Shown: positions 15,150-18,405 of the stretch, piece after piece | Numbering within the stretch: position 1 is the stretch's first letter | Layout of the letters: each line of letters starts with the position of its first letter | Assembly (NCBI RefSeq): GCF_003334355.1 | Contig: NZ_QOWP01000003.1 | DNA length: 64,000 nt | DNA from: Escherichia coli | GTDB lineage: Bacteria; Pseudomonadota; Gammaproteobacteria; Enterobacterales; Enterobacteriaceae | Reading direction: 5' to 3' (one strand) | The notes under the pieces: model-generated | The model's database searches: none | Seen by the model: the letters and a program-made list of their open reading frames with translations, nothing else | Told to the model about the DNA's origin: nothing | Position numbers and translations under genes: made by a program

Positions 15150-16193
15150 TTAACGCTTATCCGCCACCAGTTTGAGCGCGTGTTCCAGCACATTAATGTC
15201 TGCACCCGCTTTATGGGCATTTTCACTTAAATAACGCCGCCACTGCCGCGCGCCAGGAATACCCTGGAACAAGCCCAACATATGCCGGGTAATATGACCG
15301 AGATACGTCCCCTGGCTGAGTTCACGCTCAATGTACGGATACATGGCGCGCACTACCGCCACCGGATCGGCATCGATATCCGAGGAACCAAAGATCTCCC
15401 GGTCTACCGCCGCCAGAATACCCGGATTCTGATACGCCTCGCGCCCGACCATCACGCCATCCATATGTTGCAGGTGTGCTTTGGCCTCTTCCAGCGACTT
15501 GATACCACCGTTAATCGACATTGTCAGATGCGGAAAGTCACGCTTCAGTTGATACACACGCGGATAATCGAGCGGCGGGATCTCACGGTTTTCTTTCGGA
15601 CTTAACCCCGAAAGCCAGGCTTTACGTGCATGGATGATGAACATCTCACACTCGCCTTTGCCGGAAACGGTGTTGATGAAATCGCAGAGAAATTCATAGC
15701 TGTCCTGGTCGTCGATGCCAATACGCGTTTTCACCGTCACCGGAATCGACACCACATCGCGCATCGCTTTCACGCAGTCGGCAACCAGCTGCGCATTACC
15801 CATCAGACACGCACCAAACATGCCGTTCTGCACCCGGTCAGACGGGCAGCCGACATTCAGGTTGATCTCATCATATCCACGCGCTTCTGCCAGCTTCGCA
15901 CACTGTGCCAGCGCCGCCGGATCGCTACCGCCGAGTTGCAACGCTACCGGATGTTCTTCTTCACTGTACGCCAGGTAATCACCTTTACCGTGAATAATCG
16001 CCCCTGTGGTCACCATTTCGGTATACAGCAACGTATTGCGGGAAAGCAGACGCAAGAAATAGCGGCAATGTCTGTCCGTCCAGTCGAGCATTGGTGCAAC
16101 GCTAAACCGACCACTCCAGTGAACGTCAGTTTTTTCAGGCATTGCGCTGGTTTGGTTGATTTTTTGCATTTCAGAATTACCGTGCATTTTCAA
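15150..16193 (-). CDS. dusA: tRNA-dihydrouridine synthase A
   Basis: ORF track 347 aa with conserved Dus motifs (...[12 protein letters not shown]...NLNVGCP...). Confidence 0.93.
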
Positions 16194-16480
16194 ATGTAGA
16201 GATTATTTTATCGATATATCATGGGGTTATGTTATTCAGCATCACTGTTCAGGAGGCTCAATAACGGGGTACTATACCATAACAACAGGAAGCGCCTGTC
16301 TCATTGCAAAAGAAAATTGAGATCCTCTCAAGGCATGAAGCTCTCACGAAGTGATGGAAATAATCTTATTAGCCGTTAGCTTTGTTAAGGCCAATGATAA
16401 ACAATCCAGGTTCGACGATAAATAAAAATCACACATTAAACTCCGGTGATATCTCTCCCTGCTAATAGCACTGATAGAGA

Positions 16481-16513
16481 AAAAAAGAACCCAATAAGCA
16501 TTGGGTTCTTTTA
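16481..16513. terminator. Bidirectional hairpin terminator downstream of yjbM (A7-gaacccaat-aagc-attgggttc-T4)
   Basis: Hairpin flanked by A-run and T-run read in sequence. Confidence 0.65.
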
Positions 16514-16549
16514 TGTAATGCCTTCCATACCATCGAAGAACTTCACATA

Positions 16550-17296
16550 TTATTTCTCCGATTTAACCCCGAATAAATCATAAATTAATTTAGAAGTGTC
16601 TGTATATATTTTAATCTTTTCCTTTGAGTTTGGGTCAAACGACTTAGCAAAGTCAATTAATTTCGGTGCAGCATCTCGCATTTTGCTTAAAATATCAGGG
16701 GCGAGCTTTCCTTCATTCACCAGATGTGACATCTTATCCAGATAGCCATCAAAATTCATTTCTCCCCCATCTGCCAGACGCTTCATCTCTCCCAGGTACT
16801 TCTTCATATCACGTTGAGATAACTCTTCAAACTGAGCTGTCAGATAGTTCTCATTATCATCATTAATATTCACTTTTTCTGCTCCTGCTAAATCTGTGTA
16901 GGCACTAGAGTATGAAAGTGAAATCAACAGCGAAGCGAATAATTTTAAGCTGTTGTCATCATATTCCTGACATGCATTAACAAACGTTAAAAAACCAGAA
17001 CCTATTGCTTGCAAATGTATATTCGCTAAAGGTTCATTATCTTTAGATTCCTCATAAAAAAGCTGAACCGTGGAGGGAAGGCCATTCTTGGTTTCTACAT
17101 CAAAAGTATATCGTTCTATGGGCGTTGCATCTTTATTATCCTCAGGATTACATATACTATTAATCGCAAAATGAAAAATAGCCCGATCAACAACTGATGC
17201 AATAAATTCACGATCGTTTAATTCCTCATCAGTGCAATCTCCAATATACTTATTAACCCACTCTTTGAGATTAGTTATTTGCTCAATTAAAAACAC
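16550..17296 (-). CDS. yjbM: Uncharacterised protein YjbM (AT-rich gene)
   Basis: ORF track 248 aa [31 protein letters not shown]...; no recognisable domain. Confidence 0.8.
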
Positions 17297-17571
17297 ATTT
17301 TTTTACGTGCATGCCATAAATTATGAGTGATTCTTTGAATAAACAAATCTATTTTTGCAATAATTATATCCCGATGACGCAGCGCTGAATAATCAATAGA
17401 CTTACCATATATATTATTTAATTTATCTTTGATTGTACCTCTATTATCTAATTTATCGTTGGTTGCATCTATAGTATCTAATTTATCTTTGGTTGCATCT
17501 TTATTATCGAATTGATTTGAATTGAGTGTTTTATTAAAGTATCCAGTTGCACCGGGTATTATCTTCAACAT
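17287..17571 (-). CDS. yjbL: Uncharacterised small protein YjbL with internal charged repeats; overlaps yjbM start by 10 nt
   Basis: ORF track 94 aa; DNA 17400..17520 contains an imperfect ~30-nt tandem repeat encoding D-x-T-K/N-DKLD units. Confidence 0.7.
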
Positions 17572-17889
17572 GATTCATCTACCTTTTTTGTCGTACCGTG
17601 TCCTCCTTATAAGTGTTTTGCCATCTGGTAACTATCAAAAATCGCTCATAATTTTCTGAACTACAGGTATGCGAACAACCCCAGTTAAATAAATAGCGAG
17701 TTAACTTGAAGCAATTTATTTAAAAATGAATTATTAATTATTATCGTGTTGATAATGGTACGACCAGGCAACACAACACCTTACGTACAAAACAGAAAAG
17801 CAACATTACGGCAACAATAAGGGTTCTCGGTGTTTTTCCTGGAACATGGTAAAGTAAGGACATTCTTAACCCCCACTTTGAGGTGCCCG

Positions 17890-18405
17890 ATGGAAAAGAC
17901 CACAACGCAGGAGTTATTAGCGCAGGCTGAAAAAATCTGCGCGCAGCGTAATGTGCGCCTGACCCCACAGCGCCTGGAAGTGTTGCGCCTGATGAGTCTG
18001 CAGGATGGCGCTATCAGCGCTTATGATCTGCTTGATTTGCTGCGCGAAGCTGAACCGCAAGCCAAGCCGCCAACGGTTTATCGCGCGCTGGATTTTCTGC
18101 TTGAGCAAGGTTTTGTGCATAAGGTGGAATCCACCAACAGTTATGTGCTCTGCCATCTGTTCGACCAGCCCACCCATACGTCAGCTATGTTTATTTGCGA
18201 TCGCTGCGGCGCGGTGAAAGAAGAATGTGCAGAAGGCGTGGAAGACATCATGCATACGCTGGCGGCAAAAATGGGGTTTGCCCTGCGGCATAATGTGATT
18301 GAAGCACATGGGCTCTGTGCGGCATGCGTGGAAGTGGAAGCGTGTCGTCATCCTGAACAGTGCCAGCATGATCACTCTGTGCAGGTGAAAAAGAAACCGC
18401 GTTAA
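17890..18405 (+). CDS. zur: Zinc uptake regulator Zur (Fur family)
   Basis: ORF track frame 17830..18405; start at internal MEKTTTQELLAQAEKICAQRNVRLTPQRLEVL... (171 aa). Confidence 0.95.
   Translation: MEKTTTQELLAQAEKICAQRNVRLTPQRLEVLRLMSLQDGAISAYDLLDLLREAEPQAKPPTVYRALDFLLEQGFVHKVESTNSYVLCHLFDQPTHTSAMFICDRCGAVKEECAEGVEDIMHTLAAKMGFALRHNVIEAHGLCAACVEVEACRHPEQCQHDHSVQVKKKPR

Follow-up and report, generated by a model that had tools for sequence, protein, structure and literature searches.

The yjbL-yjbM pair of Escherichia coli: one frameshifted DUF2713-family gene, probably within the remnant of a dusA-integrating element

Homopolymer-tract frameshift pseudogenes and phase-variable contingency genes are known in, e.g., Haemophilus and Neisseria. 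Type III secretion effectors are encoded at the ends of prophages or within AT-rich islets. A further group of related systems comprises genomic islands and prophages (e.g. mEp460) that integrate into dusA: DusA-associated integrases attach at a core in the 5' end of this gene, and the elements bring a replacement dusA 5' end (Farrugia et al., 2015; PMC4482086). Here, these systems are compared with the yjbL-yjbM locus of Escherichia coli, which lies between dusA and zur and was analyzed within a 64,000-nucleotide (nt) stretch of contig NZ_QOWP01000003.1 (RefSeq assembly GCF_003334355.1), hereafter referred to as the window. The two open reading frames (ORFs) of this locus were shown to be one DUF2713-family gene (positions 16550-17571, minus strand), whose frame is shifted by the contraction of a poly(A) tract from eight to seven residues (A8 to A7) at codons 90-92. 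Very probably, this split gene resides inside the remnant of a dusA-integrating element. The coordinates of all distinguished features are collected in Table 1.

The original prediction described two co-oriented ORFs of 94 and 248 amino acids (aa) overlapping by 10 nt, and the ORF listing agrees with it: 'yjbL' starts with ATG, and the GTG start of 'yjbM' is placed 8 nt before the upstream stop codon. In strain 720632, which is 99.9% identical to the window (megablast of 16150-17900), the identical 1022-nt span is annotated in RefSeq by the Prokaryotic Genome Annotation Pipeline as one 'DUF2713 family protein, frameshifted', and in K-12 the whole span is likewise one frameshifted DUF2713 family pseudogene. 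Uninterrupted coding sequences (CDSs) occupy the same locus in strains HYM1 (318 aa), EC15 (340 aa), MEI003 (330 aa), VE-V10-F (338 aa), O157:H7 FRIK944 (318 aa) and AF10 (334 aa). The DNA alignment showed that the sole frame-changing difference is a homopolymeric A-run. At this junction, frameshifted alleles, including that of the window, read CGT-AAAAAAA-TG, intact alleles of the window's class read CGT-AAAAAAAA-TG (A8), and the other intact classes read CGT-GAAAAAAA-TG, AGT-ATCAAAAA-TG or AGT-GATAATAA-TG. When a single A is added, the window sequence reads as a 340-codon ORF with no internal stop, which is colinear with the intact 318-340-aa proteins and encodes a junction peptide identical to theirs. 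All 14 of the A7 alleles examined read CGT-A7-TG, and each of them becomes a full ORF by one added A, with no other lesion. Four of the five sampled A8 alleles are intact, and the fifth (strain 503025, L030 855-1878) is broken otherwise. In the latter, the frame is shifted by a G8 to G9 change at approximately gene position 806, which is either a second homopolymer lesion or an assembly error. As a result of the A8 to A7 contraction, the N-terminal 91 codons end early ('yjbL'), and the other 249 codons make up a separate ORF ('yjbM').

The distribution of the junction types was surveyed in 5,426 complete E. coli genomes, using 42- and 43-nt queries built from the invariant junction flanks. The window's junction class was found in 3,248 genomes (exact A7 in 2,236, exact A8 in 932). 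Other junction types occur in approximately 800 genomes, and all four sampled representatives are intact. In a neighbor-joining tree of the alleles, A7 appears in the K-12 clade, in allele L011 and in the window clade, each of which has A8 relatives. This shows that A7 stands at three or more separate positions of the tree, as a result of either repeated slippage or spread by recombination. Homopolymer indels are a typical error of some long-read assemblies; nevertheless, it is hardly conceivable that such an error in sequencing or assembly removed the A from a gene that is really intact, since K-12 and 2,236 complete genomes share this A7, and at least 1,000 independent contigs encode exactly the 248-aa product of the window.

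The K-12 reference and the papers derived from it still list yjbL and yjbM as two individual genes, or as a two-gene operon of unknown function. The original prediction proposed a module of a small repeat protein and a larger one, with translational coupling of the two via the 10-nt overlap. The geometry of the overlap, with the GTG 8 nt before the stop, can indeed allow termination-reinitiation, both ORFs are open in 14 of 14 A7 alleles, and yjbLM is given as a two-gene operon in two reports (PMC12218254, PMC3946193). However, such a pair of functional genes is highly improbable, since the ORFs are colinear halves, one A apart, of a gene that is intact as a single ORF at the same locus elsewhere, and the break crosses the conserved core. 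No Shine-Dalgarno (SD) sequence was found before the GTG at 17296, this putative start is a Val codon of the intact frame, and the ATG annotated as the yjbM start in K-12, 13 codons downstream, is not conserved, being replaced by GAG in the window allele. YjbM is essentially undetected in K-12: the table of PMC9841429 puts its abundance at 0.002 ppm and has no SD entry for the gene. This low level in K-12 experiments is explained if the two ORFs are halves of one frameshifted gene. Neither of the ORFs, nor the repaired protein, matched any NCBIfam model; the PADLOC search returned only HerA, at chance level (E = 0.023 over 44 residues), and no toxin, antitoxin or defense model was matched in either collection. 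The lack of an SD sequence, the unconserved start, the split core and the near-nil amount of YjbM argue against a translationally coupled two-protein module.

A different way of reading the A7 tract as functional is to consider it a programmed -1 ribosomal frameshifting or transcriptional slippage site, giving rise to both a short and a full-length product. Slippage on A-runs occurs in E. coli, and either a -1 slip of tRNA-Lys on AAA-AAA or the addition of one A by RNA polymerase would yield the A8 protein. A7 is also commoner than A8 in the window's class (2,236 vs. 932 genomes), and the A7 alleles carry no secondary lesions. Programmed recoding is nevertheless unlikely, because the in-frame U-AAA-AAA-A is not a canonical X-XXY-YYZ heptamer, no SD-like stimulator is located upstream, the orthologues are ordinary uninterrupted ORFs (some of them without any A-run), and the abundance of the K-12 protein is about nil. 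A stimulatory RNA structure was rejected as well, given that shuffled controls fold better than the RNA surrounding the site (z = +1.37). Moreover, a tract of seven A residues is short for efficient transcriptional slippage.

The main rival explanation is a contingency locus, in which the poly(A) tract (poly(G) in some alleles) is maintained as a slow, reversible mutational ON/OFF switch of a costly accessory protein and the strain analyzed is in the OFF state; we give it a slender chance. As in homopolymer pseudogenes and phase-variable genes, function is lost by a one-base change in a coding run, which recurs among the genomes, and one base restores the DUF2713 gene, which holds for all OFF alleles. 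The length polymorphism of the tract switches the frame within the population (2,236 A7 vs. 932 A8), the two forms are intermixed in the allele tree (three transitions or more), and the strain 503025 allele, an A8 form, is broken by the G8 to G9 change instead. Such a locus would also fit the great depth of the allelic lineages and the in-frame repeat, whose copy number varies. Unlike in phase-variable genes, however, the tract is only 7-8 nt long, and 8 bases are short for classical phase variation in mismatch-repair-proficient E. coli. The pure tract is missing in the other allele classes (GA7, ATCA5 and GATAATAA), recombination could explain the interleaving (mosaic flanks were seen), and the ratio of nonsynonymous to synonymous polymorphism (pN/pS) hints at relaxed constraint in the A7 clades.

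The reading of the locus as one frameshifted gene is in agreement with the analysis of the encoded protein. The original prediction saw no recognizable domain in either product, which did not hold: in the hidden Markov model profile check the larger ORF was identified as DUF2713 (PF10897; E = 1e-143). In the repaired protein, the C-terminal 236 residues (105-340) align with the Pfam model over its full length (positions 2-235 of 235; E = 1.3e-143), and PF10897 is present in all of the database relatives. The two halves match PHROG 29005 and PHROG 28007, one family of unknown function for each half. Both Pfam and PHROG differ from the locus described here in that they model only K-12-like fragments, whereas the natural unit comprises 318-340 aa, with a conserved core that begins approximately 40 residues upstream of the Pfam model. 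The latter was evidently built on the K-12 YjbM fragment, and the one-gene view corrects these fragment families. The intact proteins form large clusters (340 aa, 1,491 members; 330 aa, 1,591 members; 328 aa, 2,579 members), and the protein database also contains clusters of the fragments. All named protein-database matches are from E. coli, except for one partial entry labeled Klebsiella pneumoniae; structure-database and cluster look-ups placed Shigella among the carriers as well. A profile search of the whole library revealed a few distant relatives (20-25% identity, 303-426 aa), all of them metagenomic, and two profile scans of genome contigs with two groups of distant homologues found no relative.

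In a joint alignment with these relatives, four residues are invariant, two on each side of the break: K73 and W86 belong to 'YjbL', L118 and F133 to 'YjbM'. The break therefore does not coincide with a domain boundary. The AlphaFold (AF2) model computed from the alignment including the distant relatives (mean predicted local distance difference test score, pLDDT, 73; predicted template modeling score, pTM, 0.73) shows residues 1-62, repeats included, as disordered (pLDDT below 50 over residues 15-44) and residues 61-340 as a single helical/beta body. The site of the frameshift maps to loop 88-93, which connects helix 61-83, bearing the family-invariant K73, with helix 92-111. A model based on the close alleles alone was too poor to use (pLDDT 59). 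The structure prediction suggested as a check on the original prediction thus gave a usable model of a single body, but revealed no fold relatives, as Foldseek searches of AFDB50 with both AF2 models matched only family members. No match was obtained in a sequence profile search of the PDB, and Rfam models gave nothing above noise over 15900-18100. A literature search for DUF2713 retrieved no papers, and publications on 'yjbM' mostly concern an unrelated alarmone synthetase of Bacillus subtilis.

The imperfect tandem repeat of about 30 nt noticed in the small ORF was recovered by Tandem Repeats Finder (TRF; 3.6 copies, 80% matches, score 146). It is considered real, since its copy number varies among the alleles, which contain one, two or three ten-residue units and, correspondingly, encode proteins of 318/320, 328/330 and 338/340 aa. 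The original prediction regarded the pair as a known K-12 locus; the position is the same, but the window allele is distinct, with 92.9% identity over 1.75 kb, one extra repeat unit and a 6-nt indel (megablast, alignment). Three deep allele classes were distinguished, with approximately 0.65-0.77 synonymous substitutions per site (dS) between them. In alleles L004 (1901-2857) and L016 (600-1604), the coding identity to the window is 68-70%, while the flanks are 95-99% identical, and the divergent stretch runs from codon 2 to the stop codon. Such confinement to the CDS suggests, on the basis of these alignments, a cassette-like allelic replacement or long-term balancing selection. The terminator-like hairpin downstream of the gene is kept even beside the most divergent alleles.

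The gene lies in an AT-rich islet, as the original prediction stated and the windowed guanine-cytosine (GC) check bore out. The GC content of positions 16194-17822 is 0.347, compared with a window mean of 0.504 (standard deviation 0.05), and only 6 of 624 windows of the same size are as low; values of 0.27-0.39 over ~16200-17850 give way to 0.50-0.57 in the flanking dusA (15150..16193, minus strand) and zur (~17890..18405, plus strand). The presence/absence survey proposed along with that claim was run on the genome set described above. The islet is covered over at least 80% of its length in 4,044 of 5,426 genomes, and the complete empty site, with dusA abutting zur and the islet absent, was found in 1,043. 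We infer, with good support, that the islet (~16098-17822; 1.7 kb) is the integrase-less remnant of an element that integrated into the 5' end of dusA.

This conclusion is based primarily on a comparison with the empty-site strain Eco-15, in which the dusA-zur gap measures 155 nt. On the zur side, similarity between Eco-15 and the window restarts at 17823, and on the other side it restarts within dusA, at CC(A/G)ATGCT(C/T)GACTGGACGGACAGACATTGCCG (~16077-16097). Upstream of this break, the DusA N-terminus encoded by the window is unrelated to that of Eco-15 (MPAESHTVYPAYRFSI). The dusA 5' end of the window (16084-16190) shares 82-84% nucleotide sequence identity with segments adjacent to the phage attachment site (attP) of mEp460, PhiR40_1, 1720a-02, Lys8385Vzw and SKA5; in mEp460, the matching segment adjoins the integrase gene and encodes MHDNPEIQKTNQTSVMPEKTGAYWSSRFSIAPMLD. 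A short DusA N-terminus (...PA(Y/H)RFSIAPM) is typical of empty-site E. coli, Salmonella and other Enterobacterales. It was identified in Salmonella Infantis (MQPETQSSAFPAYRFSIAPM), which has no insert, and in fragments from Escherichia sp., Erwinia, Pantoea and Plesiomonas. Since these outgroups share the short form, the short dusA 5' end of Eco-15 is considered ancestral. Judging from the sequence comparison, the first 32 dusA codons of the K-12/window type appear to derive from a mobile element, which would have supplied both these codons and the present promoter of dusA, presumably located in the islet-specific spacer. The DUF2713 gene would, most simply, be the cargo of this element, given its position. 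The horizontal acquisition suggested in the original prediction thus gained support, as the islet has taken the place of the original 5' end and promoter of dusA, with an edge that coincides with the integrase attachment core.

In its edge at the attachment core, its replacement 5' end and its known empty site, the islet resembles dusA-integrating islands and prophages. Several relatives (720632, RM8082, O157:H7 FRIK944 and SMN197SH3) carry a later element at this core, which is therefore still usable. The later insertion leaves a 105-nt dusA 5' fragment beside the DUF2713 gene (L001 1434-1538; L011, L012 and L014 134-238). The end of the later element of strain 720632 contains PrtN-family and YafO-toxin genes. 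Database matches to 'plasmids' were rejected, as the entries are mislabeled chromosomes. In Salmonella enterica houtenae (L022), where DusA has a long, element-type N-terminus, a Zn-dependent alcohol dehydrogenase gene of foreign origin separates dusA from STM4242, and the arrangement appears to be another, independently stranded remnant of a dusA element.

A number of observations weigh against a frameshift-split gene inside an element remnant. With respect to the element, the islet differs from complete dusA-integrating elements in that, of such an element, only 1.7 kb would be left: no integrase ORF was found between dusA and zur (hence 'remnant' rather than 'element'), the second attachment (att) copy is absent (the core is single-copy in the window at up to 3 mismatches), and the islet contains neither a displaced ancestral dusA 5' fragment nor other element genes. 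In the phage collection, tblastn revealed no DUF2713 homologue, and the islet spacer DNA was unmatched. The association of the islet with the element-type 5' end is based on linkage in the sampled genomes and on complementary counts. With respect to the split gene, both halves remain open in every A7 allele examined (n = 14), the pN/pS of the A7 clades (0.62-0.76) is neither clearly neutral nor clearly separated from that of the intact alleles (0.41), both values deriving from few changes, some of the long-read A7/A8 calls could be homopolymer errors, and the A7 locus might retain residual function or switch reversibly. The ratio of nonsynonymous to synonymous substitution rates (dN/dS) is 0.24-0.5 between intact alleles vs. 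0.68-0.98 within A7 clades, again with few changes; the direction of both ratios fits relaxed constraint in the A7 clades but proves nothing.

The one-gene structure is already known in so far as automatic annotation flags a pseudogene, while its setting in a remnant of a dusA-targeting element had gone unremarked. We found no paper linking dusA integrases with yjbL, nor any that traces the dusA promoter and first 32 codons of K-12-type strains to a mobile element. Although neither of these points alters the view of a major system, the dusA-element origin provides a concrete way in which an AT-rich islet bound by H-NS could have been acquired, and the one-gene view identifies the strains suited to functional work, i.e. 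those with an intact A8 form, or O157:H7, which carries an intact allele.

As for regulation, the zur/yjbL region of K-12 is one of 78 'promoter islands', is associated with genes predicted to be foreign and is bound by H-NS in all chromatin immunoprecipitation (ChIP) data sets (PMC3661553), and a sigma-70 promoter for yjbLM was mapped in K-12 by genomic SELEX (systematic evolution of ligands by exponential enrichment; PMC3946193). Both the promoter island and this promoter belong to the K-12 equivalent of 17572..17822. The H-NS silencing anticipated in the original prediction is therefore supported for the orthologous K-12 locus. In the strain analyzed, the DUF2713 locus would be an H-NS-silenced pseudogene producing little or no full-length protein beyond rare A7 slippage products.

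Our best guess, held with low confidence, is that the intact DUF2713 protein is a dispensable accessory factor of mobile-element origin, acting on the host or on phage. The disordered repeat-containing N-terminus, the deep allele classes and the frequent inactivation or absence of the gene are suggestive of an accessory factor with a variable interaction partner. There is a small chance that it is a functional, strain-variable factor, effector-like or phage-acting and borne by a mobile element, with lineages kept by balancing or diversifying selection and expression toggled over evolutionary time by slippage in coding homopolymers, the 'two genes' of K-12 and of the strain analyzed being the OFF phase rather than a dead gene.

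By analogy, an effector-like role may be considered as a weak lead. The DUF2713 gene resembles type III effector genes in being AT-rich, H-NS-bound, often a pseudogene and located near mobile-element remnants, and the disordered N-terminus of its product is Ser/Thr/Asn-rich. This is a resemblance only, as the protein differs from the effectors in having no sequence or fold similarity to a known one, and no chaperone or secretion-system gene lies near the DUF2713 gene. One distant metagenomic homologue (P0154) is situated 1.4 kb from a gene encoding a 311-aa pentapeptide-repeat protein (L017 3842-4777, minus strand), whose N-terminal region is SopD2-like (GFWDRFCDLF motif) and which, with its ADLRH pentapeptide repeats, looks similar to PipB2. 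Its matches to PipB/PipB2 and to the SopD2 N-terminus are sub-threshold, and it contains a WEK(I/M)xxFF-like motif. Its surroundings also include a KfrA_N plasmid gene and part of a group II intron. Other distant DUF2713 homologues sit among insertion sequence fragments, and all of the distant homologues are AT-rich, on contigs of approximately 50% GC. Within the window, the lowest-GC islet (GC ~0.33) contains a SopA-family pentapeptide-repeat ORF (yjbI; 25610-26992, minus strand; 460 aa), matching NF007264 with 1060 bits over profile positions 53-512 of 512 and thus lacking the first ~52 residues. This type III effector-like relic is separated from the DUF2713 gene by 8 kb.

Table 1. Features distinguished in the dusA-zur region of the window.
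Feature	Position	Strand	Evidence
DUF2713-family gene, frameshifted; 340 codons with one more A	16550..17571	-	RefSeq annotation, +1A ORF, Pfam
5' ORF 'yjbL'; codons 1-91, three out-of-frame codons (M-C-F) and stop	17287..17571	-	
3' ORF 'yjbM', 248 aa; GTG start is the Val codon of ...K-N-V-F... in intact alleles	16550..17296	-	
Poly(A) tract A7, frameshift site; A8 in intact alleles of the same class	17298..17304	-	
30-nt in-frame tandem repeat with variable copy number; 10-residue units, disordered N-terminal region	17406..17513	-	TRF
Terminator-like hairpin (13-bp perfect inverted repeat, then T-run), 3' of the gene stop	16483..16512	-	
AT-rich region upstream of the gene, common to divergent zur; islet edge at 17822/17823	17572..17822	.	
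Islet-specific spacer, from the gene terminator to the dusA start	16194..16482	.	No empty-site counterpart, no phage match
Element-type replacement 5' end of dusA, first ~32 codons	16098..16193	-	Phage attP-flank identity
Conserved dusA segment (APMLDWT), attachment core for dusA-specific integrases	16077..16097	-	Similarity break point

The wider neighborhood of the locus comprises qor and pspG to one side and, to the opposite side, yjbJ and dinF. Elsewhere in the window, aphA, encoding a class B acid phosphatase (8180-8425, minus strand), has an apparent premature stop at 8279-8281, a position occupied by Trp in K-12. An AT-rich ORF of 141 aa (8785-9210, plus strand) gave no NCBIfam match, and a further AT-rich islet, with a GC content of approximately 0.36, extends over ~54600-57300.

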